Virus record (IMG/VR): IMGVR_UViG_3300015360_000023 | Location: 128,001-192,000 of that record | DNA: 64,000 nt | Strand: one strand, 5' to 3' | Source: a virus | Lineage: Duplodnaviria > Caudoviricetes | Shown: positions 5,351-62,262 of the stretch, in pieces | Numbering within the stretch: the stretch's first letter is position 1 | Layout: every line of letters begins with the position of its first letter | Made by a program: the position numbers and the translations under genes | The notes under the pieces: generated by a model | The model's database searches: none | What the model saw: only the letters and a program-made list of their open reading frames with translations | What the model was told of the DNA's origin: nothing

Positions 5351-6562
5351 ATGACTAATTTCGACGTTGGTATTATAGGGGCTGGGGTTGCTGGTGCTTT
5401 TGCTACCTTAAAGATGGCAAAAGATCATAAGAATGTTAAAACAATTCTATTTGATTTAGGCCGCCCCCCTATGAAGCGCAGGAGACAGCTTGAGGGCTGG
5501 CTAGGCTGCTTGCCAAATAGTGATGGAAAACTTTATCTAAGTGACTTAGATAAAATCACTGATTTAGTTGGTCTTAGAAAAAGTAAGGCATCTAATAATT
5601 GGTTCAAAAAAGTACTATCTAATGTAGGTGACTTTAAAGTTACTAAAGACCGTTCTCCTAACGTTGCAGTTGAGAAGCGACTTAAAAAGATTGGTTATGA
5701 TCTTTCATTGAATGATTATATTCAAATCTATCCTAAGGACATCCATGCCCTTTCTAAGCACATGTCTGAATTCATTGAAGATTATAAGAACATCACTTAT
5801 AGTTTTGACAATGAAGTTCGTGGCGTAACTATTCAGAAAAATATGTTTCTTGTTGAAACTGAAACACAAGTTTACAAGTGCAAGAAGCTAATCATTGCTG
5901 TTGGTCGTAGCGGCTGGCGCTGGGCTAGAGATCTATACAACAAGCTTGGCATTGTTGATAACAATGATATCGCTAAGTTTGGTATTAGAATTGAATTGAA
6001 TGCTCCTTTAATGAAAGAATTTAATCGTTCTAATTGTTCTATGACTAAGGGCACGGATATTGAAATTGGCCCATTTTCCTGGTTTGGCACAGTCATTCCA
6101 GAGGACCACGTTGACTTAGCTATCTCCGCTTTCCGTTCCAATGAGAATAGATGGAAGAGTGATAAAGTATCTTTTACTCTTATCGGTAACAGACCTTTTC
6201 CTAATGCTGGAGTTGAGCAAACAGATAGGTTAGGTAATCTAACTTTTGTTTTAGCTAATGATAGAATCATTAAAGAAAGAGTTGCTCATATTTTAACTGG
6301 TAAGAGCAAGATATCTATTATTCCAGAATACGATTGGTTGAAAGATACTATAAATGAATTGGCGCAAGCTATTCCAGAGGTAGCAACCAAAGCTTATTAT
6401 CATGTACCCACCATTACACCTACTGCTCCAAAAATCAATATTGGATCTAATTTAGAGACGGAAATTCCGGGTATGTTTGTAGTCGGTGAAAGTGCTGGAG
6501 TTCATGGTATCCTCAGTGCTGCCTGCATGGGAATAATAGCGGCAGATAATGTTTGTAAATAA
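5351..6562 (+). CDS. FAD-dependent oxidoreductase (uncharacterised NAD(FAD)-dependent dehydrogenase-like)
   Basis: DVGIIGAGVAG Rossmann motif, SDGKL, IIAVGRSG, C-terminal ETEIPGMFVVGESAGVHGILSA. Start placed at ATG 5351. Confidence 0.8.
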   Translation: MTNFDVGIIGAGVAGAFATLKMAKDHKNVKTILFDLGRPPMKRRRQLEGWLGCLPNSDGKLYLSDLDKITDLVGLRKSKASNNWFKKVLSNVGDFKVTKDRSPNVAVEKRLKKIGYDLSLNDYIQIYPKDIHALSKHMSEFIEDYKNITYSFDNEVRGVTIQKNMFLVETETQVYKCKKLIIAVGRSGWRWARDLYNKLGIVDNNDIAKFGIRIELNAPLMKEFNRSNCSMTKGTDIEIGPFSWFGTVIPEDHVDLAISAFRSNENRWKSDKVSFTLIGNRPFPNAGVEQTDRLGNLTFVLANDRIIKERVAHILTGKSKISIIPEYDWLKDTINELAQAIPEVATKAYYHVPTITPTAPKINIGSNLETEIPGMFVVGESAGVHGILSAACMGIIAADNVCK

Positions 6563-6573
6563 GAGAGAATTAA

Positions 6574-6927
6574 ATGGCAGATCCAAAAACAACTGAACCC
6601 AGTATCACTCCTGTGACTGAAGAGTTTAAAGACCAAAATCAAAAGTATAATCTAAGTAAATTCGAATTCGATTTATATCATGAAGAAGATGATAAGGTTG
6701 AAAAAGTTATTAGAGTTAAAAGAGTTTCCATGCCCAATAAGGGAGAGAAGTGGAAAATCTTTGAAGATAGTAAAGTGATGTTCGTTTTAGAAGGAACAAA
6801 GCTAACTAATAAAGAAAAAGAATTTCTTCATACGGTTGACGGGATAAATTTTCTGATTAATCAATACAAGCAAGGAATTAAGTCATTTAATTCACTCAGA
6901 GCTGAACTCAAGAAAAAGTTAAAATAA
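6574..6927 (+). CDS. Hypothetical protein
   Basis: 117-aa ORF in operon context with GAGAG upstream. Confidence 0.75.
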   Translation: MADPKTTEPSITPVTEEFKDQNQKYNLSKFEFDLYHEEDDKVEKVIRVKRVSMPNKGEKWKIFEDSKVMFVLEGTKLTNKEKEFLHTVDGINFLINQYKQGIKSFNSLRAELKKKLK

Positions 6928-6933
6928 CTACTC

Positions 6934-6961
6934 TTGACACTCTTGTACTGATGCTTATGTT
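6934..6961 (+). promoter_or_regulatory. sigma70-like promoter
   Basis: TTGACA (6934-6939), 16-bp spacer, TATGTT (6956-6961), upstream of the exonuclease gene. Confidence 0.5.
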
Positions 6962-6978
6962 ATACACTTGAGGTGTCC

Positions 6979-7575
6979 ATGGATTACGTAATTTATGTAG
7001 TAGACGTTGAAACCACCGGCTTAGATGATCGTCTTAACGATATCATCGAGTTATCGATTCATCGTCTAACTGATGATGTTCAAAAAACTTGGTGTCTGAA
7101 GCCCTTCAACCCTGACGCTATTGACCCGGATTCTCTTAGAATCAACGGGCATAAGCGCGAAGATCTTCTGCATCAAACCAAAGAAGGTCGAGAACGATAT
7201 CTAGATCCGAACAGAGTTATCATTGATGCTGAGAATTGGATCATGGAAGATGGCGTTCCCAACACCCAAAGAATTCTGGCCGGACAGAACGTATCCTTCG
7301 ATAAGGGGTTTCTTGAGCAGCACTGGATTAAAGGTAAAGTAAAGGATTCATTTCCTTTTGGTAGAAGAACCCTCGACACCATGCAAATTGAATTCTTTAT
7401 GGATCTTTGCCGTGGTAAAATGTCAGAAGGTTATAGTCTCAAACTCTTGACCAAGAAGTACGGCCTTAAGAATGAAGCGGCCCACACCGCAGCGGCTGAC
7501 GTTAAGGTTACTAAAGATGTATTACTGAAGCAAATTGAAGTGTTCAAGAAGGCTTTAGCTACTTCTGGTGAATGA
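6979..7575 (+). CDS. DEDDh 3'-5' exonuclease (DnaQ / RNase T-like)
   Basis: VVDVETTG, AGQNVSFD, LDT, AHTAAADV. ATG 6979 is preceded by GAGG. Confidence 0.9.
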   Translation: MDYVIYVVDVETTGLDDRLNDIIELSIHRLTDDVQKTWCLKPFNPDAIDPDSLRINGHKREDLLHQTKEGRERYLDPNRVIIDAENWIMEDGVPNTQRILAGQNVSFDKGFLEQHWIKGKVKDSFPFGRRTLDTMQIEFFMDLCRGKMSEGYSLKLLTKKYGLKNEAAHTAAADVKVTKDVLLKQIEVFKKALATSGE

Positions 7576-15244: not shown

Positions 15245-15820
15245 TTATTCTATCCAACGTGATACTATAACTATATTAACTAAATTATTTCCACTTGGCG
15301 GTGTTTTGAAGACATCTCGCTCTACATTAGCTGGATGACGACCAGGTACTGGATCAAATAATTCTGGACGGCCAGTAATATTTTCCGAAATAACCCAAGC
15401 TTCCCATGAAGATGTTAAAGGGTTCCATCCCTTTAGTTTATAATAAATAGTTTGATCTTTAGGGTGATCAATAACAGAATTAATATCTATATCAAATAAA
15501 GATTCTTCAATTGGTTGTTCGTACTTTCCCCAATTGGTATTGTATCCAGTATATAATTCATTCTTAAATGAATCTACCATGTTATCAGAAGTGACGCCGC
15601 CCCAATTTGAGTTGTATCCAGCATATGGTTGATTAAAAAATGGTGAGTTTACGTTTTGATTATCGTAAGATCCCCAATCTAGCATATAGCCTTGGAACAC
15701 TCCATCTGTAAACTGTATAGGAGTAGTGCCCGCATAGCCATCCCAATGATCACCAGTACTAGGTAAGCTAAATCCATCGGAAAATGATAATAGTATGTTT
15801 GAAGTTTGTGCTATTGCCAT
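15245..15820 (-). CDS. Virion-associated protein with the YYKLKGWNP module
   Basis: Tyr/Asn-rich; C-terminal IYYKLKGWNPLTSSWEAWV. Confidence 0.65.
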   Translation of the reverse strand: MAIAQTSNILLSFSDGFSLPSTGDHWDGYAGTTPIQFTDGVFQGYMLDWGSYDNQNVNSPFFNQPYAGYNSNWGGVTSDNMVDSFKNELYTGYNTNWGKYEQPIEESLFDIDINSVIDHPKDQTIYYKLKGWNPLTSSWEAWVISENITGRPELFDPVPGRHPANVERDVFKTPPSGNNLVNIVIVSRWIE

Positions 15821-15829
15821 GATTTCCTA

Positions 15830-48349: not shown

Positions 48350-48741
48350 GCGATGTAGTTTTGGTTCCAGATCATTATTATAATTGCCCTATTTGTGGAC
48401 AAGCATGTCTGGAAGAAAAGATTGATGGGTGGAGGACGGTGCTCAAGACGCAAGGAGCGTGCCAACAATTTATATGCATTAACCCACTTGCGAACAATCC
48501 GCTTCATTATTACGATCACCTCGTGGATGAGGCTACCCCCAATCGTATTGCTTACCAAGAGTTCTCGATCGATATTGGCAGCAAATATATTATGTTTGCT
48601 TTAGATCTGGTACACCAAAAAACTTTGATTAAAAACAGTGTCAATGCTGATGCATTAGAGCTAGACTTTATAATCGTCCCAGACTTTCCAACTCTTGGCT
48701 CCCTCAAAAAGAAGATTAGAACAGCAATTACATTCTCATGA
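48346..48741 (+). CDS. Array member (CPIC ... [10 protein letters not shown])
   Basis: ATG 48346 overlaps the upstream TGA; ATGA overlap into prfB. Confidence 0.8.
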
Positions 48742-49832
48742 AAACTGCAACTCAATTAGTGGAATCCTGTCGAGACTTACTTAAAGGTCTTGAGGATATG
48801 ATTCCCATTAAAAATCATCAGAATAGGTTGGAGGAGATTGATGAACGCTCCAGCAACCCTAACTTTTGGACTAATACTAATGAAGCTACTAAGCTCATGA
48901 AAGAGCGTCAGAAAGTATCTGATATTCTTTCTTTTATGAAGGGTGCCCAGGACCAGGTAGCTTTCTTCGTAGAGGTGTATGACAATATGGCCGAAGAGCT
49001 GGAGGCCATGAAGCCTGAACTATCTCTTTTAGAGTCGTCTATGGCTGATTTTGAGTTCCGTCAGATGCTCAAGGAGCCTATTGATGAGAGCCCCGCCATT
49101 ATGACCATTTCTGCCGGCGCAGGAGGCCTTGAGGCAGCCAATTGGGTTACCATGCTCCTCCGCATGTACTCCCGCTATGCTGATTCTTTTAAATTCAAAG
49201 TAGAGCTATTGGATATGAAGCCTTCTGAGGAACATAGCTCTATTTGTACAGATTCAGTCTCTATCAGGATAGATGGCCCTTATGCTTACGGCTTTCTAAG
49301 GGGCGAGGCCGGTGTCCATCGACTTATCCGCAACTCCCCATTCAATTCAGGCGATGCCCGTCATACCTCCTTTGCAGCCGTAGCCGTCACGCCCGACATT
49401 GAAGATACCATTGAGGTAGTGATAAATGAAAAAGATATTGAGATTACTACTATGCGAGCTTCCGGTGCTGGTGGTCAGAATGTTAACAAAGTAGAGAGTG
49501 CCGTTCGTCTCAAGCACATTCCTACTGGAATCGTCATCAACTCTCGTTCAGAACGAGACCAACATACCAACCGCCGCCTCGCCATGAAGATGCTTAAGGC
49601 GAAGTTGTATGATTTAGAGATGCGAAGGAAGATGACAGAGAAGGAGAAGTATCTGGCTAGCATGCAGGAGAACTCTTTCGGCAACCAAATGCGCACATAC
49701 ACTCTGACGCCCTATCAACTAGTCAAGGATGAAAGAACCGACTACCAGGTAAGGGATGCAGATAATGTACTAGATGGAGACATCCAAGGATTCATTACTT
49801 CTTATTTACATTTTAGAGATAAAATCGTATAA
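48738..49832 (+). CDS. prfB: Peptide chain release factor 2, with no programmed frameshift
   Basis: SPF anticodon-mimic motif (RNSPF), [16 protein letters not shown]; continuous reading frame. Confidence 0.95.
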
Positions 49833-50415: not shown

Positions 50416-51089
50416 ATTTATTAGACATTTTATCCTATCGAACCCGCTGTATGATATGTGACCGCAAGCTGGAGATGAAGTCTTTGGATTTGGCCGGCGT
50501 CAACATAACAAGAACTCAAGAAGGCCTTTATGTTGAGGTAGGAAGTAAAGATAAAGATTATGCTGTCTATTTCAAGTATGATGGCTCTTATGAGAGAATG
50601 AAGAAGTGGAATAGTATGTATGTTAGGCCACTATCTATCCTCAAAGAATGTCCTAAATGTATTCCCAAGGTTGACTTGGTGGAAGATGTAGTTTTAACTG
50701 GCATCCCCAAGGCGCCCTCAACCATTATCCTCAAGGCTAGGAGCGTGGGCATGACAACAATGCATGGGGTCATGTCCCAGTTCTTAGTGGATACCACCTT
50801 AAAGTCTCTGAAGGATAAGCGATGCGCTTATACCTTTGACCTGTTTGGGGACGCTGAGGGTAACTTTGACTGCCAGCTAAACTGGGAGGACATTAGTTTC
50901 CACACTAAGAGAGAGTTCCATCAAATCAAGACGAACTTCAAAGAAGACACTACTAGTATCAAGAGCGGCGCTTTTAACGGCACCCTTGATGACATCATTA
51001 GAATGAATGTTCCGGCCGTTAAAACCAACACCATTCCTACTACAGATAAATTGATTGAAAAAATTAAGTTGTATAACTTATTCTCATGA
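50412..51089 (+). CDS. Array member, large subfamily (CMIC ... KIKLYNLFS)
   Basis: Two CxxC; C-terminal module. Confidence 0.8.
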   Translation: MNLLDILSYRTRCMICDRKLEMKSLDLAGVNITRTQEGLYVEVGSKDKDYAVYFKYDGSYERMKKWNSMYVRPLSILKECPKCIPKVDLVEDVVLTGIPKAPSTIILKARSVGMTTMHGVMSQFLVDTTLKSLKDKRCAYTFDLFGDAEGNFDCQLNWEDISFHTKREFHQIKTNFKEDTTSIKSGAFNGTLDDIIRMNVPAVKTNTIPTTDKLIEKIKLYNLFS

Positions 51090-51521
51090 GAATATCTTCA
51101 AATTATCTAATCTTTTCAAATACATAATGATGTCAGTTAGATTTTTCATTCTGATTTTATAATTTGGATTGAGGTTAACCCAATATTGATTTTTGAATAA
51201 CTTACTATCTAGTTTAATATTGCGTAAGACTTTATTTTTGCCGGTGCTAGTAACTTCATAAATGGCAACACGGAAGCCGCCATACTCTCTTAGTAGTTGA
51301 CGGTCTCTATAAGCAGAGAGGGAGGGGAACAAGATTCGTACCTTGTACATTCCTATCTTAATTTGGTTCTCCACAAATGTATAGCTCTCAGAGTCAGGAA
51401 GTTTAGTTACTTCTTGAACCTTAGCCTCACGGAGAGCCCGCTTAATCATGTTCTTAGATACTTTGCCTTTGCTGAAATCTAAGATCGTCCTAAATTCCTG
51501 CTTACCTTTAATCAAACTCAT
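51084..51521 (-). CDS. Inverted array member without a zinc ribbon (ends DNLKIFS)
   Basis: Shares TCATGA with the convergent gene. Confidence 0.75.
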   Translation of the reverse strand: MSLIKGKQEFRTILDFSKGKVSKNMIKRALREAKVQEVTKLPDSESYTFVENQIKIGMYKVRILFPSLSAYRDRQLLREYGGFRVAIYEVTSTGKNKVLRNIKLDSKLFKNQYWVNLNPNYKIRMKNLTDIIMYLKRLDNLKIFS

Positions 51522-51790
51522 CTTTGTAATTCATTCCCTCCGAAGACCATGAAGTTATCAGTTATAACTAGCATTGCGCTCTCGGATATCTCATCATCGT
51601 GTAGCATTCCATAGATAGCTCCACCTACACATAATGCTACGTTATCTACTCTTTCACCATATCTAAAGTAAGTTCCGAAGGCTAACTTGCCCTCTTGTAA
51701 AAGCTCAAGATGGTAGCCGATGTCAGATTTAAGAATTCTCAGAGAGTTGCGCCCGTCGAGGGCGTGTGTTACAATGATTATTGCGTTCAT
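51518..51790 (-). CDS. Hypothetical protein
   Basis: 90 aa; ATGA overlap with 51084-51521. Confidence 0.65.
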   Translation of the reverse strand: MNAIIIVTHALDGRNSLRILKSDIGYHLELLQEGKLAFGTYFRYGERVDNVALCVGGAIYGMLHDDEISESAMLVITDNFMVFGGNELQR

Positions 51791-51804: not shown

Positions 51805-52125
51805 ATGGATCGTTTCTGTCCCATCTGTAATAAAAAACTCACCGTGCAGCTCATGATTCAGTACAACGATTATTTTTGTAACGCCGCTAAGGACCATCAT
51901 TTTAGTGAGCGCGTGGTTGGTGAGGAGCGTAAGATGGTGAAGTTCCGTGTTAGCTCTGGTAAGCAACGTTTGTACTGTAAGTTTGATTATGGCAACGGCT
52001 ACTCCGAGATTTGGGAAGGCGCGGAGAATGCAAATAGGGTAAGAGTGGAGCAGGTTTTTGAGCCTAATTACTCTAGTGTAGAAGGACTGGTCTCTAAACT
52101 TCGAACCTATCTGGTCTTCTCATGA
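51805..52125 (+). CDS. Array member (CPIC ... KLRTYLVFS)
   Basis: CxxC, CxxxxxH, C-terminal module. Confidence 0.85.
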   Translation: MDRFCPICNKKLTVQLMIQYNDYFCNAAKDHHFSERVVGEERKMVKFRVSSGKQRLYCKFDYGNGYSEIWEGAENANRVRVEQVFEPNYSSVEGLVSKLRTYLVFS

Positions 52126-52460
52126 AGATGCCTTATCACTGTCCATTCTGTAAGGGACCAATGGTAAACTCTTACTACTATTGGAATGATGGTAGTAAGA
52201 ATCTAATAAAGTCTTGTAATAAGAATATTACACATAGCGTTACGTTTACATCTCTAATACGTGATCACGATGAAGTTAATAAGATTACCATTCCATGGGG
52301 GCCTGACTGCTCATTCAGGTGGGCATTACATGCTGAAGAGAAATATAAATTAATCCTTCAACATAAGAAGGGCGAAACCAAGTTACCATTTTTTGAACCA
52401 GATCTATCTAATTATAGGAAGCTTGTCAATAAACTTAAAACCTATTTGGTCTTTTTATGA
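52122..52460 (+). CDS. Array member (CPFC ... KLKTYLVFL)
   Basis: Same architecture; ATGA overlaps. Confidence 0.85.
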   Translation: MKMPYHCPFCKGPMVNSYYYWNDGSKNLIKSCNKNITHSVTFTSLIRDHDEVNKITIPWGPDCSFRWALHAEEKYKLILQHKKGETKLPFFEPDLSNYRKLVNKLKTYLVFL

Positions 52461-52852
52461 CGTGTATGTTCTGTTTAGCTCCACTTACCAGGGTTGCTTC
52501 TCCAGCCGGTGATGATTTACACAAGATAATGGTTTGTCGCGGCTGCCAAGAACCTAACTTCAAAACGTATTGTCGAGAGCTTTACTTAACTAAAACCGAA
52601 ATCAAATTATATGATTCTATTCAAATAGATGAATTCATCATCACACGCCTTTATAGGTCATCCAGAACTGGGCAACCAATAGAGCAAACTAAATTCTATA
52701 AAGATTCTATAGGTCAGATAGATTCACAAGTCGACGCTACCCCTCTAACTTACTATCTACCTATTTGTGAGCTTGATTATCATATCAAGCTGCCCCTCAA
52801 TGACCTTGGCGCCTTCAAGCGCAAACTTAAACTTTGGACCATCTTCAGTTAA
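52457..52852 (+). CDS. Array member (CMFC ... KLKLWTIFS)
   Basis: Two CxxC; terminal Ser encoded by AGT. Confidence 0.85.
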   Translation: MTCMFCLAPLTRVASPAGDDLHKIMVCRGCQEPNFKTYCRELYLTKTEIKLYDSIQIDEFIITRLYRSSRTGQPIEQTKFYKDSIGQIDSQVDATPLTYYLPICELDYHIKLPLNDLGAFKRKLKLWTIFS

Positions 52853-52884
52853 CGTAGTAATTTGTAGGGGTTATATACCCCTAT

Positions 52885-53250
52885 ATGGATGATACGCCTA
52901 CATGTCCAATTTGCGGAAATAAAATGCGCACGGTTAATCTTGATAACAAGTTACTTCATATTATCAAAAAGCAAGCTAATTATGTAGAAAGAACCTGTGT
53001 TAATGGAATGAATCATAGCTTGCGGCTTTTTGCTGATAAAGCTACTGGTCAGGTAGACTTTATCAACCTATCTTTGAATCCTAAGTATTCTAAATACCTA
53101 GAGATAGATTTTATTAACTCAAAATGTCGAATTAATTGCATGAAGGAAGGTAAGCCAGAGTACATTGAAATACCTAAGATGATTATCCCTGATTTCCCTT
53201 TACTAGAGAAACTTAAGGAACGTGTTAACCTCTACGTAGTATTTTCCTAA
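52885..53250 (+). CDS. Array member (CPIC ... RVNLYVVFS)
   Basis: CxxC, CxxxxxH, C-terminal module. Confidence 0.85.
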   Translation: MDDTPTCPICGNKMRTVNLDNKLLHIIKKQANYVERTCVNGMNHSLRLFADKATGQVDFINLSLNPKYSKYLEIDFINSKCRINCMKEGKPEYIEIPKMIIPDFPLLEKLKERVNLYVVFS

Positions 53251-53582
53251 TGTACACACAATGCGTTTTATGTAAAGCAGAGCCATTAGAGCATGTTGAT
53301 AATGGGTGGTTTTATACTAAGCTTTGTGTAGTTTGTGAAGTAGATGGAATGTCTAAGTTTCAAGCTTCTTATCGAAAGAAGGATGATAAGCTAATCTATA
53401 TGGTTTGGTGGATAGAAGATTTCTATATTAAAATAGATTATGTAGAACAAATGACTGAAATATCAAAGATAGATCTCATAATACTTCTAAGTACTTTTCG
53501 ACTGTCTCACACTTTAGAGATTGATCACGAAGATCCCTCAGCCACTGCCCGCCGCCTTCAAGCTCTAATGGCATTTTCATGA
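53250..53582 (+). CDS. Array member (CVLC ... RLQALMAFS)
   Basis: Two CxxC; TAATG overlap. Confidence 0.85.
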   Translation: MYTQCVLCKAEPLEHVDNGWFYTKLCVVCEVDGMSKFQASYRKKDDKLIYMVWWIEDFYIKIDYVEQMTEISKIDLIILLSTFRLSHTLEIDHEDPSATARRLQALMAFS

Positions 53583-53965
53583 CCGTTGACTTTATCTTCT
53601 GCCCATTATGTGGCGCTTCTAAATGGCTAACCGATAAGACAGGATCCTGCTCGACAGGTAAATTAACTAAGTACAATTGCAGCGGCTGCAAAAATTTCAA
53701 ATATGTAAACGTCACCAGATTAGTAAAGCATTCAGTTCTTGTCGGGATTACACAAACGGTTAGATATTCAGTTGAAGCAGTTATCAAGCCTTATAGTGTT
53801 ACTGTCTTCTACTTCTCAGGTATAAATGGCGATGAGCCAGGCTTCACTAACATTAGGTCTGACACCGGAGAATTGCTGGTATCTATTAAGTCAATAATTA
53901 CTTTCAATTGGTATAAAGACGAGTTACTGCTAGACAAGATTAAAAAGTATATATTATTTTCATGA
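53579..53965 (+). CDS. Array member (CPLC ... KIKKYILFS)
   Basis: Two CxxC; ATGA overlaps. Confidence 0.85.
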   Translation: MTVDFIFCPLCGASKWLTDKTGSCSTGKLTKYNCSGCKNFKYVNVTRLVKHSVLVGITQTVRYSVEAVIKPYSVTVFYFSGINGDEPGFTNIRSDTGELLVSIKSIITFNWYKDELLLDKIKKYILFS

Positions 53966-54354
53966 TTTGGGATAAAAAAATCTGTCCAATATGCGATAGT
54001 CCATTAAAAGTAGTTAATGGGTTTGATGAAGAAGACCTTTATCTAATGATGTGCCCAACATCAATAGCAAAAGACATACCAGTGGCCCATTCTACAAATT
54101 TAGCGAGTCATCAAATGACCTATTCTCATTTTGAATTAGAATTTCAAAATCACCAGCCTTCCTATCAAACAGTTAGAGTATACCCATATTGTGTTAAATC
54201 ATATGTTGATGTAAGTAACATTTATATGTATAGAATGATATCCGAACTTAAAATGTACGCTGAGTTCGTTGTCGAAACACCATTCATAGATCTTCCTTGG
54301 AAAGACAAAGAGAAGATTATTGCTAAACTTTCTACCTATACGTTGTTCTCATGA
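53962..54354 (+). CDS. Array member (CPIC ... KLSTYTLFS)
   Basis: CxxC, later C and H; ATGA overlaps. Confidence 0.85.
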   Translation: MIWDKKICPICDSPLKVVNGFDEEDLYLMMCPTSIAKDIPVAHSTNLASHQMTYSHFELEFQNHQPSYQTVRVYPYCVKSYVDVSNIYMYRMISELKMYAEFVVETPFIDLPWKDKEKIIAKLSTYTLFS

Positions 54355-54749
54355 ACTGCCCTATCTGTAATAAAACTATGCTGGAAACTGAAACCGCAGG
54401 CATGATGACCTGCGAACGAACTACTATAAAAGTTCCAGCCATAGATATGGAAGTTGAAAGCGTTCATGCTATCTACTTCTTAAATAAAGAAGGCCAAGCA
54501 ATCATCAAGACTATTGAGGCGCTTCCTTATATCTTCCAGATTCATGATGATCCTAAGTCCATTCGTCAGACTAGAATTTCCAAACTAATTAAAGGATACA
54601 AATACGGGGATAACGTATCAATGATTACTTTTGGAGAACAAAGAATTAATTGTGAACAGCTTATAGTTGTTCCGTCCGTAGTTAATATACAGTGGGATAA
54701 TCCTGAAGCAGTCAAAGAGCGCGTCCAAATGTATATGTTGTTCTCATGA
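54351..54749 (+). CDS. Array member (MNCPIC ... RVQMYMLFS)
   Basis: Same architecture. Confidence 0.85.
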   Translation: MNCPICNKTMLETETAGMMTCERTTIKVPAIDMEVESVHAIYFLNKEGQAIIKTIEALPYIFQIHDDPKSIRQTRISKLIKGYKYGDNVSMITFGEQRINCEQLIVVPSVVNIQWDNPEAVKERVQMYMLFS

Positions 54750-55114
54750 TCTTCTCTACTGATATTTGCCCTATCTGTAAAAGTAAACTAGAGCTACAAA
54801 TTGTAGAGGGCAATTATACTGTTCAGATTAATTACTATTGTAATAACAATGAGGTAGTTAGAAATGAATCAGATACCTTTGCAATATCTAAATCACATTA
54901 CCTGAACAAATGCTATCAGAATGGTAAAATGTGTTTTATGATTCTGCCACCATTTGAATTGTTGCACCATGAAAAGAGTAATAGAACGTTGGTTAAAAGT
55001 GTCAGCGCCCATCAGCCAGAGAAACTAATTTTAGATATTCCCTTACTTGACGCGGACTACGGCAATCCCTATGCTGTGCTCAACCGTTTAAAACTCCTGG
55101 TGACCTTTTCATGA
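54746..55114 (+). CDS. Array member (CPIC ... RLKLLVTFS)
   Basis: Same architecture. Confidence 0.85.
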   Translation: MIFSTDICPICKSKLELQIVEGNYTVQINYYCNNNEVVRNESDTFAISKSHYLNKCYQNGKMCFMILPPFELLHHEKSNRTLVKSVSAHQPEKLILDIPLLDADYGNPYAVLNRLKLLVTFS

Positions 55115-55455
55115 ACAAGTTCGAGACCAATCAGTGCCCCTTGTGTGGTGAAGTTTTGAAGCTCCGCAGAGTTTGCGGCGTCAATGTCTTCTCTTGCCCA
55201 ACCGTAACCCTCAGTAACCACACTCATTATGAGGTGGAAGTGGATGGTCAAACAAGCATCCAACATATGTATGTTGGCTCTTGGAGCATCGATAACTTCG
55301 CCAACTCTTCTAGATCTCGTATCTATAAACAAACTCCTCATCCCAGTGGAACAGGGATTCGATGGAAGTTGATGACGGAAGTGTCACACATCCGTCCCGA
55401 CCTTGAAGCTTCAATGTCAGAGCGCCTGGAAAAACTTATGATGACCTATGAGTGA
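55111..55455 (+). CDS. Array member, variant tail (CPLC ... EKLMMTYE)
   Basis: CxxC; C-terminal helix diverged. Confidence 0.8.
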   Translation: MNKFETNQCPLCGEVLKLRRVCGVNVFSCPTVTLSNHTHYEVEVDGQTSIQHMYVGSWSIDNFANSSRSRIYKQTPHPSGTGIRWKLMTEVSHIRPDLEASMSERLEKLMMTYE

Positions 55456-55834
55456 TAACGATAACTTCCAGAAGCATCACCTACCTAAACCCTGCCAGTT
55501 CTGCCCGAACATGGCGGGTTATCATCCATTGGAAGCAATGGAAAGACATAATGTTAGCGTTTACTTCTGTCATCCTTGCCAGGCCGAATACTTGTTTTTC
55601 CGAGATGGGAGTAGAGCTTCCGTGTCGTTATATACAACCATCAAAGACAAAATGTATCGCTGGACTGTAACCTCCGTTGGTTCGGCTCAGCTATGGCATG
55701 TTAAAGAACCAGGAGTTCCTGGTGTAAAAGTAAATGAAGGAATGTTTACTGTTAAAAGTTTTAGTGGAAACATACCTCAATTGACTCCAGATAATATCAA
55801 TGAGAAGGTAAGAACGTGGCTGCTTTTTCTTTAA
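55448..55834 (+). CDS. Array member (CQFC ... KVRTWLLFL)
   Basis: Two CxxC; QLTPDNINEK pre-terminal motif. Confidence 0.85.
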   Translation: MSDNDNFQKHHLPKPCQFCPNMAGYHPLEAMERHNVSVYFCHPCQAEYLFFRDGSRASVSLYTTIKDKMYRWTVTSVGSAQLWHVKEPGVPGVKVNEGMFTVKSFSGNIPQLTPDNINEKVRTWLLFL

Positions 55835-56235
55835 AGTGCCATTTATGCGGTACCTATTTAAGTGAGTCGTCCCCAATATGGAATGTTGGAGGCAGAAGAC
55901 GTGTAGCTTTTCGATGCCTGGACCAAAAATGTGGCCTCATTAAGGTAGTGAATCGTTCAGTTATCGAAATCATTTTACCAGATGAAGACATAGTATCTTA
56001 TCAATTACTTATCTCATCTGGTGAGAAATGGTATCGTATCTGGGGTAGAGTTAATTCTGAGGAGCCAAATGATACATCTATCTCTAATATGGATGTAGGT
56101 AGGCCAAATGCTACTGGAAAAGAACAGTTTATTATTAATGTTCCTCGTTTTTACCCTCTACACTTAGAAGAAGATCTCTATACTCAAGCACAAGAAATGC
56201 TGAAGAAACTTAAAAATCTTGTAATATTCTCATGA
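55816..56235 (+). CDS. Array member (CHLC ... KLKNLVIFS)
   Basis: GTG start overlapping the previous gene by 19 nt (start uncertain); CxxC; C-terminal module. Confidence 0.75.
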   Translation: MAAFSLKCHLCGTYLSESSPIWNVGGRRRVAFRCLDQKCGLIKVVNRSVIEIILPDEDIVSYQLLISSGEKWYRIWGRVNSEEPNDTSISNMDVGRPNATGKEQFIINVPRFYPLHLEEDLYTQAQEMLKKLKNLVIFS

Positions 56236-56609
56236 ATTGTCCTTTGTGTAATAGAAAGATTGCAGTAGAAATAGATAGCTATGAGCACGCGCCTTCATTC
56301 TATTGTAGCTCTATGATTACGCCAGATCCCCCTGGCAACAATACAATCAGCCATTACGGCAAGAGTTATTTATTTCACGGCGGATATGAAGAGGAGGCCA
56401 TCGTCCTACCTTACAAGATAGTAAACTACTTCGTTAATACTGATTACAAAAAACCCAGAAGCGAAATACATAAGTACCAACTTAAGGATATTCAATATTT
56501 TGGTAAGCGTTGGACCTGGGTAAAGATTATGGATCTTCCATATATTCTTGAGATCCTTCAGTACAAAAAGATGCGAAATAGACTTAAAAACATATTATTG
56601 TTCTCATGA
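56232..56609 (+). CDS. Array member (MNCPLC ... RLKNILLFS)
   Basis: Same architecture. Confidence 0.85.
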   Translation: MNCPLCNRKIAVEIDSYEHAPSFYCSSMITPDPPGNNTISHYGKSYLFHGGYEEEAIVLPYKIVNYFVNTDYKKPRSEIHKYQLKDIQYFGKRWTWVKIMDLPYILEILQYKKMRNRLKNILLFS

Positions 56610-56968
56610 AAAACTGTCCTCTTTGTGATAAATTGTTGGTCAAACAGTCTACCGTAGATGCGTGCGGATATGAGCCAGCTATCTATTGTCCAGAAGAGAT
56701 AACTCAAATAGGTGATAACCGAAAAGCTAATCACTATCGAGAAGACCCCGAGCTGAATACAGTTACCATGTATGTCGGCTCTTTTCGCATTTTAACTAAG
56801 GATGGCACTTCCAAGGTCGGAACTAGAATGCAGTACAAGACCAGACGAGGCCTTAGAACAACCCGAGGCCGCTGGCGATATAAGACTCTAATCGAAGTCC
56901 CCATCATCCATCCCGATACAGAAGAGAGGCTGTATTCGAGGATTAAACTATTGCTATTACTATCATGA
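56606..56968 (+). CDS. Array member (CPLC ... RIKLLLLLS)
   Basis: Same architecture, variant tail. Confidence 0.85.
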   Translation: MKNCPLCDKLLVKQSTVDACGYEPAIYCPEEITQIGDNRKANHYREDPELNTVTMYVGSFRILTKDGTSKVGTRMQYKTRRGLRTTRGRWRYKTLIEVPIIHPDTEERLYSRIKLLLLLS

Positions 56969-57315
56969 CCAATTGTTATTACTGTCAGAAGCCAAGCAGA
57001 TATACAATGGATGAGATGACCCGCATCTATTATTGGCAATGCGATTGGCATGGTGCCGTTAGAGTAAGGCAAACCGAAATGCTAACCGATAGTGGAGCCT
57101 TCAATGTCTCCTTAGTTGTCCTATACAAAGACGCGACCTACAGCGCAACTTTCTTTCGCAATTACGATGTCTTAGCCGGTCTTCCTAAGTTCCGCATCGA
57201 TAAGATTAACCGCCGCCCCAAGACCTCAGAGATTATTCTCGTTCTAGATTTTCATCCAGATATTACTCCAGAGAATATCGCAGCTAAACTACCAACCTAT
57301 ATTCTATTTTCATGA
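56965..57315 (+). CDS. Array member (CYYC ... KLPTYILFS)
   Basis: CxxC, CxxH; PDITPEN pre-terminal motif. Confidence 0.85.
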   Translation: MTNCYYCQKPSRYTMDEMTRIYYWQCDWHGAVRVRQTEMLTDSGAFNVSLVVLYKDATYSATFFRNYDVLAGLPKFRIDKINRRPKTSEIILVLDFHPDITPENIAAKLPTYILFS

Positions 57316-57713
57316 CAAATACTCTTTATATTGAAGAGGCACCAGCCACTATCCCCTGCTGGTATTGCGGTGAGACCTGTTATCCCACTACAGAACCCTT
57401 TGCAGATCGTCATGCCACAGAGTATCGCTGCCTAAGACACGAACCATTAGATGTTATGTTCCGTTGCGTTAAACATGATATCCCGTCTCCCAATGTATTT
57501 TTCAATACCGTTAGAATTACACTAAAAGATATGAGATTGGACCATAACTTCTATGCTGGTCCAAGAGCTTACCTAGAATGGTATAGGCCCGCCAAAGATA
57601 GATGCTGGGGAGGAGAATGGCGCCAAGTCAAAGTCTTTCCAGTTGATGTTATGATCAATACCGATCTTCATCAAGTATATTCATTACTTAATCTCTATAA
57701 GGTATGGTCATGA
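57312..57713 (+). CDS. Array member (CWYC ... LYKVWS)
   Basis: CxxC, CxxH; variant tail. Confidence 0.8.
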   Translation: MTNTLYIEEAPATIPCWYCGETCYPTTEPFADRHATEYRCLRHEPLDVMFRCVKHDIPSPNVFFNTVRITLKDMRLDHNFYAGPRAYLEWYRPAKDRCWGGEWRQVKVFPVDVMINTDLHQVYSLLNLYKVWS

Positions 57714-58069
57714 GACTCATCTGCCAATCTTGTAAGCACGAACTCATCCAAAATGTTTACTGGAAAAATAACATCAAATATGAAGATAATGTCTGGGAAT
57801 GTTCCGAAGGTCACTGCGCCCTTAAAATAGAAGGAAGCAATATAGTTAGCTATACCGTCTTCTTTGAACGTAGCAAGATAATGTACAGGCTATATGCTGA
57901 TTATAATAACGGTATGCAACTAGCCTCCAAAGATACCTCCAGATTTAAAAGAGGCGGTTTCAAAACATCTCTAACCATTCCACAATACATTAATTTAATC
58001 ATCAAAGATGAAATTATACAAGTAGAATACTTAGTAGATAAACTAAGGAAGTTAGTCATCTTTTCATGA
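57710..58069 (+). CDS. Array member (CQSC ... KLRKLVIFS)
   Basis: ATG 57710 overlaps the upstream TGA. Confidence 0.85.
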   Translation: MRLICQSCKHELIQNVYWKNNIKYEDNVWECSEGHCALKIEGSNIVSYTVFFERSKIMYRLYADYNNGMQLASKDTSRFKRGGFKTSLTIPQYINLIIKDEIIQVEYLVDKLRKLVIFS

Positions 58070-58105
58070 CGACACAATGTTAAACCGATCCGCGAGCCAA
58101 CGCGC

Positions 58106-58402
58106 ATGAACTGCCATTACTGCCAAAAGGAATGCCGACACATCAATATCTCCAATAATCATTGGAGATGTCTACCTTGCAAAGTGGATTATCGCGGAGT
58201 GGAAACCAATATCTTCGGCATGATCAACAGCACTTCTTACTACTTCAATATCTATAATGGCCCCAGAGAGTTCCCCGTTAGAATCATGAAAGGATTGCCC
58301 AATGACTTTGCCGTCAACATTGTCGTCAACCTAACAAGTCGCCCGGATATAACCCCTTCCAACGTGGAAGAGAAACTCAGAACCTACCTGCTATTCTCAT
58401 GA
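58106..58402 (+). CDS. Array member (MNCHYC ... KLRTYLLFS)
   Basis: Two CxxC; PDITPSN motif. Confidence 0.85.
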   Translation: MNCHYCQKECRHINISNNHWRCLPCKVDYRGVETNIFGMINSTSYYFNIYNGPREFPVRIMKGLPNDFAVNIVVNLTSRPDITPSNVEEKLRTYLLFS

Positions 58403-58767
58403 GAATCCCCTGCAAATTTTGCCAACGTCACTATACTCCCAAAGATTACATCGACGTTAAACGCATCAATGGCGGCTGGATTACCTTCAAGAACCAACAC
58501 GTCAATTGTCAAACATGTCTGGTTGACTTCTATTATGATTATACTGATAACTCTAAACTAGTTAGAATTAACTATCGAATAAGAAGTAGACCTTACTCAG
58601 ATGTTAATATGGACCTAGCCCTAAATAAGACTTTCCTTATCTTCCATCCCAAACAAAAGACTTTTTCAACCAGCATCATTGCCTTCGATGGTACCTGGCC
58701 CGAGACCAAGCCCAATGATGCTCTCGCCCTAGCCAAACGTCTAACTAACCTATTGATGTTCCTATGA
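58399..58767 (+). CDS. Array member (CKFC ... RLTNLLMFL)
   Basis: Two CxxC. Confidence 0.85.
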   Translation: MRIPCKFCQRHYTPKDYIDVKRINGGWITFKNQHVNCQTCLVDFYYDYTDNSKLVRINYRIRSRPYSDVNMDLALNKTFLIFHPKQKTFSTSIIAFDGTWPETKPNDALALAKRLTNLLMFL

Positions 58768-59123
58768 CTTTCTACTGTCACTTCTGCGATAAACGATGCC
58801 GACAAACCTTTCCGGAACTTAAAGAATGGTGGTGCGAACATTGCAGAGTCACCTTCCAAGAAGGCAATGGCTCTTTCGGTTTGGATGGAATCAAATTCTC
58901 CCTAGCCAATCCAGACTATAGCCATTATTACTTGACCATTAATTTCGCTTCAAGCTTAACCATCTTGTCCTGGCATCGTCCCCCAAGACACCTCAATGAA
59001 GACCCTCAAGCCTATGATGAACTGCCCAAGGAAAAGGTTGTGCTCCGTATCTGGCAAGCTATCCAAGGTGTCAAGCCCAATAATCTCAAAGACAAAATTC
59101 AAACTCTATTAACCTTCTCATGA
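58764..59123 (+). CDS. Array member (CHFC ... KIQTLLTFS)
   Basis: Two CxxC. Confidence 0.85.
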   Translation: MTFYCHFCDKRCRQTFPELKEWWCEHCRVTFQEGNGSFGLDGIKFSLANPDYSHYYLTINFASSLTILSWHRPPRHLNEDPQAYDELPKEKVVLRIWQAIQGVKPNNLKDKIQTLLTFS

Positions 59124-59479
59124 ACCTTAAAGTTGTCCAGTGCTACTCCAAAAACAAAGTCTATTGCTATTATTGTGACGAGGATATGACCCCAGATGAT
59201 GGTCAACAAATCAATGGTTACTTCGATTGCAAACCCTGTCATACCAGATTCATCTGCTCCGGTAACTTCTCCAACCCAGATATTGAATACATTCATTTTA
59301 CCGTTGATAGCTATCTAATTGAATTGAATTATGATAGGAATCAAACCTTCCTATTCCATAAGGATGAATCCCCTATGCGTAGACTGCATATGATGGAGTT
59401 AGCTTACATTGCAGATATTAATCCAACCAACGCTAAGTATTGGCTAACTAAACTATTAAATCTCAAAGCCTTCTCATAA
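59120..59479 (+). CDS. Array member (CYYC ... KLLNLKAFS)
   Basis: Two CxxC. Confidence 0.85.
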   Translation: MNLKVVQCYSKNKVYCYYCDEDMTPDDGQQINGYFDCKPCHTRFICSGNFSNPDIEYIHFTVDSYLIELNYDRNQTFLFHKDESPMRRLHMMELAYIADINPTNAKYWLTKLLNLKAFS

Positions 59480-59602
59480 ATGGCCTATAATTTCCTATCA
59501 TTATGATTGATATCAATGATTCTCCTTGATTTACCGAGTGATTATAAACTAACCCCCAAAAATTTCCCTGGAAAACTACAGGTTTTACCCAACTTCCTAT
59601 AA
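59480..59602 (+). pseudogene. Relic array member or 28-aa micro-ORF made of the C-terminal module only
   Basis: One frame reads ATG(59480) MAYNFLSL, TGA(59504), LIS, ATG(59516) MILLDLPSDYKLTPKNFPGKLQVLPNFL, TAA(59600-59602). Confidence 0.6.
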
Positions 59603-59603
59603 A

Positions 59604-59945
59604 ATGAATTGCCCACTTTGCCAACGCAGCCTAAGACCAGATCCACAGTATCCGTCTTGTCTAACTTGCCCCACCAAAATTACCTATCCTCATTGCACAC
59701 CTATATCTCATTACGAATTTGATGGAGAAGTACTCTGTACAAGCCACCAATGGTATGTCGGCCCCTTCAAACTAGAAATAGATGCTACTGGCTTATCCAT
59801 TTATAAAATCGATGTCCTGAAAACTAAACCAGATTATCCTGCCAAACCCTCTGTCGAATACATCATGTACCTGGATATTCAAATCCCCATTGATGATTCC
59901 AATAAAACTATTAACAAAATCAAGACTTTCATTCTATTCTCATGA
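59604..59945 (+). CDS. Array member (MNCPLC ... KIKTFILFS)
   Basis: Same architecture. Confidence 0.85.
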   Translation: MNCPLCQRSLRPDPQYPSCLTCPTKITYPHCTPISHYEFDGEVLCTSHQWYVGPFKLEIDATGLSIYKIDVLKTKPDYPAKPSVEYIMYLDIQIPIDDSNKTINKIKTFILFS

Positions 59946-60283
59946 ACTGTCCTATCTGTCAGAAAAGAATTAAACCTTTCCGCTATTGGGATGCAGACCG
60001 TACTACCGGCCAAAAGGTGTATGATCAAGAACCAACCTTTCAATGCGAAACAAGAGTCCCATTAAACAATGGCCAAGCCTTATGTCACTATAGTTATGAG
60101 GCCGTCACCAAATATTCTTGGATAATTATCTATCCATTTAGAATTAAACAATCATTAACCCATTCAACTTTCCAGCAATACTCCCAAACCTCTTGGACCC
60201 AACTCTTGCAAATACCTAGAGTTACCCATAAGCAAGCCATCCAAATATTGTCTCGCTTTAAAAATCTAAACCCCTTCCTATAA
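59942..60283 (+). CDS. Array member (MNCPIC ... RFKNLNPFL)
   Basis: Same architecture; last gene of the array. Confidence 0.85.
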   Translation: MNCPICQKRIKPFRYWDADRTTGQKVYDQEPTFQCETRVPLNNGQALCHYSYEAVTKYSWIIIYPFRIKQSLTHSTFQQYSQTSWTQLLQIPRVTHKQAIQILSRFKNLNPFL

Positions 60284-60321
60284 AAAACTTTGGCCAAGTT
60301 AACCCAAAAGCTAACTCGGCC
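60282..60321 (-). terminator. Intrinsic terminator for the protease pair
   Basis: Minus-strand RNA GGCCGAGUUAGC-UUUUGG-GUUAACUUGGCC (12 bp with two G-U pairs) followed by AAAGUUUUUU. Confidence 0.6.
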
Positions 60322-60352
60322 AGAATTTTCACACATATTTTTACTCAGACTT

Positions 60353-61009
60353 TCAATGAGGTAACTGAACCTTATCTCCATATTGACAATAATTCAATTG
60401 ACTCATCGGAATAACTTGAAAAGCCGCCACTCTCTTCAAAGCCTCATAATCCACACAGCGATAGTCTTCCCAGTTGTAATGAGGTTGCATCAAGTAAACT
60501 TCATCATGCCGAGCCCCCAACAAATGTCCTATCTCATGCATGATAATACCTTCCATCCAAGTATTGCTAATCCTATTCCTAATAACAAACATCCTATTAC
60601 CACCAATAGCATTAACCCAAGCTAAAGTGTAGAATTGCTTCTCTCCAGAGTTTCCCCTATCCAATGGCTCCACCATCGGATTCATGGAGTCAATCTTCAA
60701 GATCACCCAGCCATCCCCGCGCATGACTCTATCCAATACACCCACTTCCATGTTGTATTCATACGTCTCAATGTCTATCCTAACATAGCCGTTCAATGCA
60801 AAATTCCATTGCTTTATTGCATTGTCAATGGATAACCTATCCGCTACCCCAAATTCCCTATCTACCCAGACATGATACACACGTGTAGGAACAATAGCTG
60901 CATGACCATTACTATGAACATAGTAGAACGGTAATACCACATGACCGCAACCTATCAAACCACAAACTAAAATAAAAGCCGCTATGAATAACCCTTTAAG
61001 GAGTTTCAT
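60353..61009 (-). CDS. Matrixin-like (metzincin) zinc protease, predicted lipoprotein
   Basis: HEIGHLLGARH plus the LM Met-turn; signal peptide ending LIGC. Confidence 0.85.
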   Translation of the reverse strand: MKLLKGLFIAAFILVCGLIGCGHVVLPFYYVHSNGHAAIVPTRVYHVWVDREFGVADRLSIDNAIKQWNFALNGYVRIDIETYEYNMEVGVLDRVMRGDGWVILKIDSMNPMVEPLDRGNSGEKQFYTLAWVNAIGGNRMFVIRNRISNTWMEGIIMHEIGHLLGARHDEVYLMQPHYNWEDYRCVDYEALKRVAAFQVIPMSQLNYCQYGDKVQLPH

Positions 61010-61011
61010 AA

Positions 61012-61728
61012 TTACTCTTTAATGTCAGATGGGGTGTGAGCGTCCCTTACAAACTTCTTAACACTATCCAAATGAACAAACAAACTCATGTTGGGAATGC
61101 GAGTTAATCGAGAACAAACTCCAAGCAAGTTGCCAGAATCATCAAAGACTCCGCCGCCTGAATTACCATACCATACCGTACCATTGAATTGAACTACTTT
61201 ACCAATAACACTCTCTTCACGGTAGGCTGCAACTGTTCCTTCTGTATAAGACCAGTATGCTCCTCGTGGATGTCCAACCACGAAAATGTGCTCTCCAATA
61301 CCAGGCATCTCCTCAGCTAAACTAGCAACCTCATGCAAGCCAGGTACTCCACGCTTATCTGCCTTAATTAAAGCAAGATCATGGTCTTCATCAAAAGCTG
61401 TTACCTTAGCAAGATGTAAAGCTGCTGGATCCTCTCCCACTTCATGAACTTCTTTCTGTACTACGTAATAGATCTTACGGTCCACTGGGTCAGCTCCCTC
61501 TTCACGTGCTACACAATGTCCTGCCGTTAGAATCTCATCCTTCCCAATCCATATGCCAGTGCAATAAACATGGACATCTCCATCTTCGCTTATAGCTACT
61601 AGTGCAACTGTAGATTCACCAATGTGTTGGTGTAATGCTGATGGACTCCTAACAGGTGTATTCTTACCTGTAGCGCAACCTAGCATCGTTAATACCGCAA
61701 CCAAACTTAGAATAAATAATCGCTTCAT
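61012..61728 (-). CDS. Trypsin-like (S1) serine protease, predicted lipoprotein
   Basis: LTAGHC, HDLAL, GNSGGG; signal peptide ending MLGC; ATG at 61728. Confidence 0.9.
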   Translation of the reverse strand: MKRLFILSLVAVLTMLGCATGKNTPVRSPSALHQHIGESTVALVAISEDGDVHVYCTGIWIGKDEILTAGHCVAREEGADPVDRKIYYVVQKEVHEVGEDPAALHLAKVTAFDEDHDLALIKADKRGVPGLHEVASLAEEMPGIGEHIFVVGHPRGAYWSYTEGTVAAYREESVIGKVVQFNGTVWYGNSGGGVFDDSGNLLGVCSRLTRIPNMSLFVHLDSVKKFVRDAHTPSDIKE

Positions 61729-62262
61729 GCAAACCCTCTTAACGCCTGATTGAGGTAGTGAAATACTACTTCGTGCTTGCACCAGGTCAAACTACCAAAA
61801 ATACTAATTTATTCACCTATTTGTCACACTACCTAACACCCCTTTATTTTTATTAATTAGTAGTGCCTCTATACGCCATGTACAGGGCTCTAAAGCCCGC
61901 ATGCCCTGGTCTACCTGATAGGTGGCGCGGATTAGTTTAAATAGCCACTCCGCCCCAGGACAACCCCTTCTTAAGGCATAGTGGTAATCGCATATTGTGA
62001 TCTTTTATAATGGCATTAGATGCTTATGGTGGGATATCTTCCCATATTGTGGGATTGAGTGGCATGTATGGTCATATATAGTTGATCAAAAGGGCTGTTT
62101 TGGTAATTTATATGTTAGTTGAAGGCTTATGGATGCTATCGTAACGAATCAATTAGTGCTATCTGATTGGTTAATAGCTATCGGAACTTAATAGTGCCCA
62201 TTTGGGAGGCGGACTGCCAGCGCACACGTCGGACACCCCCACCTTTTGTATGCTGTTGTAGG

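Follow-up and report, generated by a model that had tools for sequence, protein, structure and literature searches.

The stretch of DNA analysed here, 64,000 nucleotides in length and further called the window, comes from one 202,609-bp contig of an uncultured giant phage, where it covers bases 128001-192000. Between positions 45158 and 60283 it carries 29 paralogous plus-strand genes of 98-236 aa, and every member of this array combines an N-terminal CxxC with the C-terminal tail [KR]-[LIV]-x-x-[YLW]-x-x-F-S-stop. The CxxC belongs to a zinc-ribbon motif, whose residues C3, C6 and C19 (numbered as in the reference) do not vary in the family alignment. A search of 1.84 billion proteins at E<=1e-3 returned 436 cluster representatives of the family, whose domain has no match in Pfam. 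Overlapping stop and start codons (ATGA) represent translational coupling in polycistronic operons. From 51805 on, almost all junctions of the array are such 4-nt ATGA overlaps, and 52 of the 76 junctions scored in five arrays are overlapping stop/start pairs, which suggests a reliance of the array on coupling. In most members an NNA codon encodes the final Ser (mostly TCA) or Leu (TTA or CTA) of the tail, and TGA comes next, for instance at the junctions 52122, 54351 and 58399; since the A of this codon and the TG of the stop form the start of the next gene, the last residue and the stop are partly constrained by the overlap. Array members without an overlap still end in F-S, with the codons TCT, AGT or TCC.

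Eight syntenic loci, designated here by L numbers, were recovered with two kinds of anchor, the array members and the metallopeptidase that is conserved downstream of them. Some genes within the array do not belong to the paralogous family. Two of them, on the minus strand at 51084-51530 and 45832-about 46340, have no CxxC and possess family-type tails (...YLKRLDNLKIFS and ...MQAVKKLSAFL, each followed by the stop); their orthologues in L003 (7856-8284 and 2649-3158) are also on the minus strand and have the tails conserved. A tail common to otherwise unrelated minus-strand proteins hints at a modular signal. A release-factor gene at 48738-49832 (+), with Pfam PCRF and RF-1 domains and read as RF2-like, has conserved counterparts at the corresponding position in L003 (86% identity), L004 and L008. 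Directly after the array and convergent to it, the window and the eight syntenic loci possess genes for a metallopeptidase and a Trypsin_2-type serine protease, to which L015 adds a Peptidase_C39 gene. In the window the metallopeptidase (60353-61009, minus strand) has weak reprolysin/matrixin matches, its closest relatives being P0157 (74%) and P0159 (60%), and the serine protease (61012-61782, minus strand) has only a distant Staphylococcus phage match in GenBank phages. These neighbouring proteases are possible candidates for processing partners of the tail-bearing proteins. Between the array end and the convergent metallopeptidase gene, within 60284-60352, a strong hairpin with a 14-bp stem and a T-run after it lies on the minus strand (60322-60291), and it is probably the terminator closing both transcription units.

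The sole gap of more than 40 bp in the tightly coupled part of the array (51805-60283) is a 124-bp interval on the plus strand, 59480-59603, which we read as the probable remnant of a lost member. The intact member upstream of it (59120-59479, plus strand, 119 aa) has its best match in L005 (5335-5628, reverse complement, 52%); its tail, ...WLTKLLNLKAFS followed by the stop, matches that of L003:15510-15827 (...WLDKLLKLKAFS), and its end reads TTC TCA TAA at 59471-59479. The intact member downstream (59604-59945, plus strand, 113 aa, MNCPLCQ...KTFILFS and stop) has orthologues at L003:15824-16168 (65%) and, on the minus strand, at L005:1919-2278 (52%), and is without a Shine-Dalgarno (SD) sequence of its own. 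Its AlphaFold2 model (pLDDT 88.4, pTM 0.80) consists of a zinc ribbon, a sheet and a terminal helix, with the C-terminus formed by the last beta-strand (residues 82-90), a loop and a 14-residue helix (99-112, pLDDT above 90); a Foldseek search of the model against the PDB gave E=0.8 at best, and no fold was assigned.

The TAA of the upstream member (59477-59479) is directly followed by an ATG at 59480, which opens an eight-codon ORF, MAYNFLSL (59480-59506, plus strand), ending with the in-frame TGA at 59504-59506; its frame is that of the tail-like ORF that comes after. Beyond the TGA there is a TTG at 59507 and then an ATG at 59516, opening the 28-codon MILLDLPSDYKLTPKNFPGKLQVLPNFL with the stop TAA at 59600-59602, and a single A separates this stop from the ATG of the next array member at 59604. 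The positions of both frames and the size of the gap were exact in the preliminary description of this DNA, and the tails that it had quoted for the array genes 56965 and 58106 are correct as well. The tail-like part can be divided in two. The plus-strand segment 59552-59602, sixteen codons plus the stop (TPKNFPGKLQVLPNFL), appears as a decayed terminal helix and matches the family tail in register. The segment before it, 59507-59551 on the same strand, for which TTG 59507 and ATG 59516 are possible starts, is a hydrophobic stretch with a loop (LISMILLDLPSDYKL) and resembles the last beta-strand and the loop that precede the helix in intact members: it is comparable to LILDIPLLDADYGNP in w54746 and to ILPSDY in L005, and HMMER aligned ILLDLPSDYK, weakly, to the strand/loop part of the tail model. 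We call the whole a stub. Its length is 28-31 codons, or 40 with the TGA read through, compared with a family body of 98-236 aa with a beta-sheet core, and not a single cysteine is encoded by all 40 codons of 59480-59602. The stub lies, as the members of the family do, on the plus strand inside the array with its stop adjoining the next start.

Two further sequence features were considered in the gap. A perfect 12-bp palindrome, ATTGATATCAAT, which contains GATATC, occupies 59506-59517; it thus begins with the final base of the TGA, takes in the TTG and runs into ATG 59516. About 0.034 perfect 12-bp palindromes are expected per 124 bp; this one occurs once in the 202.6-kb genome, was not found in the relatives searched, and could be a scar of a deletion junction or a binding site. 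At the upstream junction, ATAAATGGCC (59476-59485, plus strand) might be taken for a weak vestige of the canonical ATGAAYTGCC, the stop/start overlap continued by Met-Asn-Cys, since junctions of this type read TTCTCATGAACTGCC in L003 and TTCTCATGAACTGTT in L005, compared with TTCTCATAAATGGCC in the window; only six positions are unconstrained, of which four match, and these are too few to serve as evidence, so the suggestion was rejected. The sequence itself is real and no assembly error, because two further contigs (one from JGI, one from Logan) that carry the identical 59604 protein are 100% identical across the gap, TGA included; both belong to the same population and are uninformative on conservation of the gap.

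Whether this ORF resembles the family tails depends on how the comparison is made. The preliminary description had proposed to score it with an HMM built from the other tails, and had stated beforehand that the lack of a significant score, along with no translation or conservation, would speak against its reading. No significant score was obtained: the HMMER model of the 29 window tails gave it 2.0 bits (E=37) and placed it at about rank 105 among 1,686 ORFs, and that of 141 family tails from outside the window gave 1.1 bits (E=140). Unanchored Smith-Waterman comparison with all tails was equally negative, with p=0.12 against shuffles and the 23rd place among 842 natural peptides. A different picture emerges when only stop-anchored, ungapped peptides are scored and the null consists of all such peptides in six frames of the whole genome, a design that takes the stop codon as prior information and in which several lengths were tried. 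Under these conditions the amino-acid PSSM trained on the window gave p=0.001-0.018 for the stub, and the nucleotide PSSM gave it p=1.2e-4 to 1.1e-3 (10.1 bits and p=1.2e-4 for the sixteen codons plus the stop), with scores higher than 2-9 of the 29 true members reach in leave-one-out scoring. The external PSSM, made of 141 non-window homologues, gave 3.4 bits at L=16, a value that not one of 6,945 null peptides reached, and p was 0.001-0.006 when other lengths were used; the score is about 20 bits below the member median. With a single L005 tail as query the stub ranked 6th-12th at 16-24 residues, and all the stop-anchored peptides above it were true array members (shown for 16-20). As a control, stop-anchored peptides from other array gaps of more than 60 nt in the relatives scored -20 to -47 bits, compared with +2 to +3.4 for the stub.

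The anchored tests detect what HMMER and Smith-Waterman do not, because the register of the tail is fixed relative to the stop and local methods ignore it; the likeness to the tails claimed earlier thus holds in the stop-anchored register, and not in the local searches. Among 112 tails of eight related arrays, the best in-register matches of the stub form a genuine subclass, ITPxNFxD[KR]L..YL[LI]FL followed by the stop, and so the NF and the terminal FL of the stub can be considered as authentic family features. Taking together the anchored scores, the right strand and the stop placed one base before the next start, we show, as far as sequence can tell, that the stub derives in register from the 3' end of an array member.

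Compared with 155 family sequences, the stub has kept the residues that anchor the tail: F-2 (97%), K-9 (K or R in 100%), L-8 (L, I or V in 97%), L-5 (Y, L, I, W or F in 100%) and L-1 (S or L in 95%), along with the optional P-15 and N-13, and it conforms in register to the motif [KR]-[LIV]-x-x-[YLWFI]-x-x-F-[SL]-stop. The residues between the anchors are not compatible with a helix. N-3, P-4 and G-10 each occur in 0 of the 155 homologues and P-11 in one, and the prolines and the glycine map inside the 14-residue terminal helix of the 59604 model. Such a pattern is expected from relaxed selection on a former tail, as opposed to a peptide selected to mimic one. The stub possesses neither the N-terminal CxxC zinc ribbon nor a full-length body, and with the loss of both, the in-frame TGA at 59504 and the missing SD, lesions that we predict to be disabling are evident from the nucleotide sequence.

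SD sequences are in use by this phage, being present before 47% of long ORFs as against 11% by chance, with G enriched at -9 to -6; no GGAG, GAGG or AGGA motif precedes ATG 59480, TTG 59507 or ATG 59516. We found no sign of TGA recoding, with long ORFs ending in TAA 99, TGA 38 and TAG 7 times. Inside the gap there is no stable RNA structure (fold z=0.04) and no Rfam match, sub-threshold noise being confined to the sequence outside it, and the promoter and terminator scan returned nothing on the plus strand.

Nothing close to the locus was found in GenBank phages or IMG/VR. Neither megablast nor tblastn of the locus and of both flanking genes found a match among GenBank phages, IMG/VR and JGI metagenomes yielded nothing usable when scanned with the array alignment, with the protease and with the pair of 59604 orthologues, and a word-index search with 59604 returned only itself. 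Two of the eight syntenic loci, L003 and L005, carry a 59604 orthologue; in L014 and L015 there is no close one (a 29% match in L014 only). In L003 the gene at 15510-15827 abuts the 59604 orthologue by an ATGA overlap, with no gap and no extra gene. In L005 the orthologues of 59120 and 59604 (52% each) are 745 bp apart, and the interval holds two full-length genes, a 59120-like paralogue and an orphan member of 141 aa that ends with ...KPLLTPTNFKNKILTYLTFS (also given as LTPTNFKNKILTYLTFS) and the stop and for which neither the window nor L003 or L006 has an intact counterpart. The same slot is thus empty in L003, filled by the stub in the window and filled by two genes in L005. The preliminary description had suggested looking in related phages for a full-length orthologue: the slot did turn out to be variable, but for the intact L005 members no orthology to the stub could be demonstrated. 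Against the 3' end of the orphan member the stub has 29/72 identities at the DNA level, which is uninformative, and other intact tails outscore the stub with that query. A micro-ORF is absent from this junction in both L003 and L005, and no conserved tail-only ORF was found in the seven arrays scanned, that of the window included. The comparison shows that the gap is not conserved in the relatives and that members turn over at this slot.

Differences in membership are not restricted to this place. The window genes w54351 and w54746 are missing in L003, and w59942 is missing in both L003 and L005. In place of the former two, L003 has a featureless gap of 92 nt, which was considered as a possible reciprocal relic and rejected, there being no tail-like peptide in it. 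L008 (ENA ERZ1673965), a 46-kb contig with a coverage of about 8, has many gaps and five broken members with intact tails; its short ORFs measure 0-63 aa from the first start codon, or 21-76 codons from stop to stop, and their tails score 8-26 bits. This array may be either in decay or affected by frameshift errors from low coverage. In L007 a gene similar to GIY-YIG/NUMOD3 homing endonucleases lies between array members (6371-7147, minus strand) and is a possible driver of array rearrangement. The array of L003 is preceded by an FGE-sulfatase gene, and immediately before this gene a 22-codon ORF, ...FKRSTTLLLFS and stop (L003:1002-1067, plus strand), gives 7.0 bits on the tail matrix and may be another small tail relic.

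A spacer of another kind is found before gene 52885. These 32 nt (52853-52884 in the window) carry GGGTTATATACC, which is present also at L003:9604-9635, at about 9619 in L004 and at 1439-1470 in L005 (reverse complement), and recurs in a 55-nt spacer of L007 (reverse complement, about 1653), in five lineages altogether; in the window the motif contributes to a small hairpin, AGGGGT...ACCCCT, immediately ahead of the ATG. We consider it as a candidate for a conserved regulatory or initiation element inside the array. Its conservation indicates that functional intergenic elements of the array are conserved, whereas the 124-bp gap is not.

From the analysis described above it would be logical to suggest, with a probability of about 0.78, that the gap is a pseudogene stub of a deleted array member and marks gene loss and turnover in the array. 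A former CxxC...LFS member would have been situated between 59120 and 59604 and would have lost most of its body by deletion, leaving the last 30-40 codons with the last beta-strand, the loop and the C-terminal helix. Drift would then have introduced the in-frame TGA and the helix-breaking Pro, Gly and Asn, with five tail anchors and the exact register, the stop one base before the next ATG, being retained. The preliminary description had offered a deleted member, as an instance of gene birth and death in the array, for one of its two readings, and this one is borne out by the tail-derived sequence in register, strand and position, by the disabling lesions and by the lineage-variable slot, with the events pointing mostly to loss. 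We infer that a full gene was deleted, and not that a 3' end was gained by partial duplication; the arrangement in L003, taken alone, could equally be explained by a gain of 124 bp in the lineage of the window, such as a partial duplication of this kind. Most likely the stub gives no functional peptide, and it appears to persist as the immediate upstream context of gene 59604.

The other reading in the preliminary description was a tag-only peptide of 28 aa, which would compete with the full-length members for a reader of the C-terminal motif. The motif anchors are kept, and the presence of the tail on the two unrelated minus-strand proteins of the array, both conserved in L003, suggests a modular signal. 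Still, this idea is hardly credible and we do not uphold it, as the 155 real tails have essentially no Pro at -4 or -11, no Gly at -10 and no Asn at -3, residues that fall inside the helix, the score lies far below the member median, there is no SD, and neither L003 nor L005 has the ORF at this junction; no intact array contains a conserved tail-only ORF, the short ORFs of L008 being broken genes with intact tails. More generally, it seems very improbable that the stub is still translated and important, either as a tail-only decoy or as a mini-ORF relay for the last two members, which have no SD, and of these two versions the decoy is the less likely. An ORF that arose by chance in an ordinary intergenic spacer, without any gene ancestry, its tail likeness being a coincidence in AT-rich sequence, would agree with the negative outcome of HMMER and Smith-Waterman and with the shortness of a frame whose length is not unusual. 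We find this explanation improbable, since the in-register tests against genome-wide six-frame nulls reach p<=1e-3 with three independent models, the match has the strand expected of a member and its end is a single base away from the ATG of the next one, and other array gaps score 25-40 bits lower.

Less attractive than a chance ORF is a regulatory spacer, in which the gap would hold a protein-binding site, namely the palindrome ATTGATATCAAT, or would supply the last two members with an internal promoter. The low expectation for a perfect palindrome of 12 bp and the conserved GGGTTATATACC before 52885, which indicates that regulatory spacers do occur in the array, speak in its favour; but the palindrome occurs nowhere else in the genome and in none of the relatives searched, the gap is unconserved in L003 and L005, and it contains no sigma-70-like promoter on the plus strand and, on reading the sequence, no sigma-54-type GG-N10-GC site. 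The most plausible of the alternatives, though itself unlikely, is compatible with a relic and overlays it: the remnant may have been reused as a translational relay, with the open frame under selection and not the peptide. Ribosomes would pass from TAA 59477-59479 to ATG 59480, from TGA 59504-59506 to TTG 59507 (or ATG 59516) and from TAA 59600-59602 to ATG 59604, and the SD-less downstream members would in this unlikely case stay coupled after the deletion. All three junctions in the gap place a stop next to a start (TAA|ATG, TGA|TTG and TAA-A-ATG), and gene 59604 has no SD in a phage that uses SD elsewhere (47% vs 11%), which together suggest that the mini-ORFs could act in reinitiation, in an array that relies on coupling at 52 of 76 junctions. 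On the other hand, the first and the last junctions would be inherited for free by a plain relic, a run of 40 codons with at most one stop is nothing unusual for DNA of this composition (about 0.3 by our estimate), and other uncoupled junctions of 32-92 nt in these arrays have neither an SD nor a relay ORF, so that SD-independent initiation seems to work anyway. Like the usual ATGA coupling, which involves most junctions of the array, the gap has start codons adjoining both of its stops; two vestigial mini-ORFs that bridge 124 nt would be an unusual and hypothetical way to stay coupled.

As a probable pseudogene stub of a deleted member, the gap can be placed among known phenomena. Pseudogene remnants left by deletion occur in genomes of prokaryotes and phages, tandem arrays of paralogues among them, and have been surveyed for prokaryotes (PMC522871), and the stub resembles deletion pseudogenes in being start-less and body-less, in its residual similarity to paralogues, in having a disabling stop and untolerated substitutions, and in its position, at which related genomes carry different genes. 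It differs from them in that only the last 30-40 codons are left and that these are too diverged for standard homology tools; its ancestry is visible only because the tail register is fixed relative to the stop and to the start of the next gene. In itself the stub is an ordinary object, gene stubs being usual in fast-turning paralogue arrays. The array as a whole recalls Bacillus phage G, for which a lineage-specific expansion of about 35 zinc-ribbon proteins has been described (Iyer et al. 2021, PMC7824862) and a role as transcription factors or in DNA binding proposed (PMC7824862): in both cases small zinc-ribbon (CxxC) proteins are largely expanded in a giant phage. The matches of our array profile in phage G, however, are weak and N-terminal (E=0.003 per genome for the best, over profile positions 1-85), none of them reaches the tail, and so common membership in one family is not established.

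It follows from the above that a tag-only inhibitor can be dropped from the leads worth chasing in this array. The approach used here carries a lesson of method as well, namely that a C-terminal motif in fixed register to the stop can reveal an ancestry missed by HMMER and BLAST. The stub matters little alone, and its value is that of a marker. Along with the differences in members that distinguish the window, L003, L005 and L008 from one another, it records a turnover, consisting mostly of loss, in a large and so far undescribed megaphage family.
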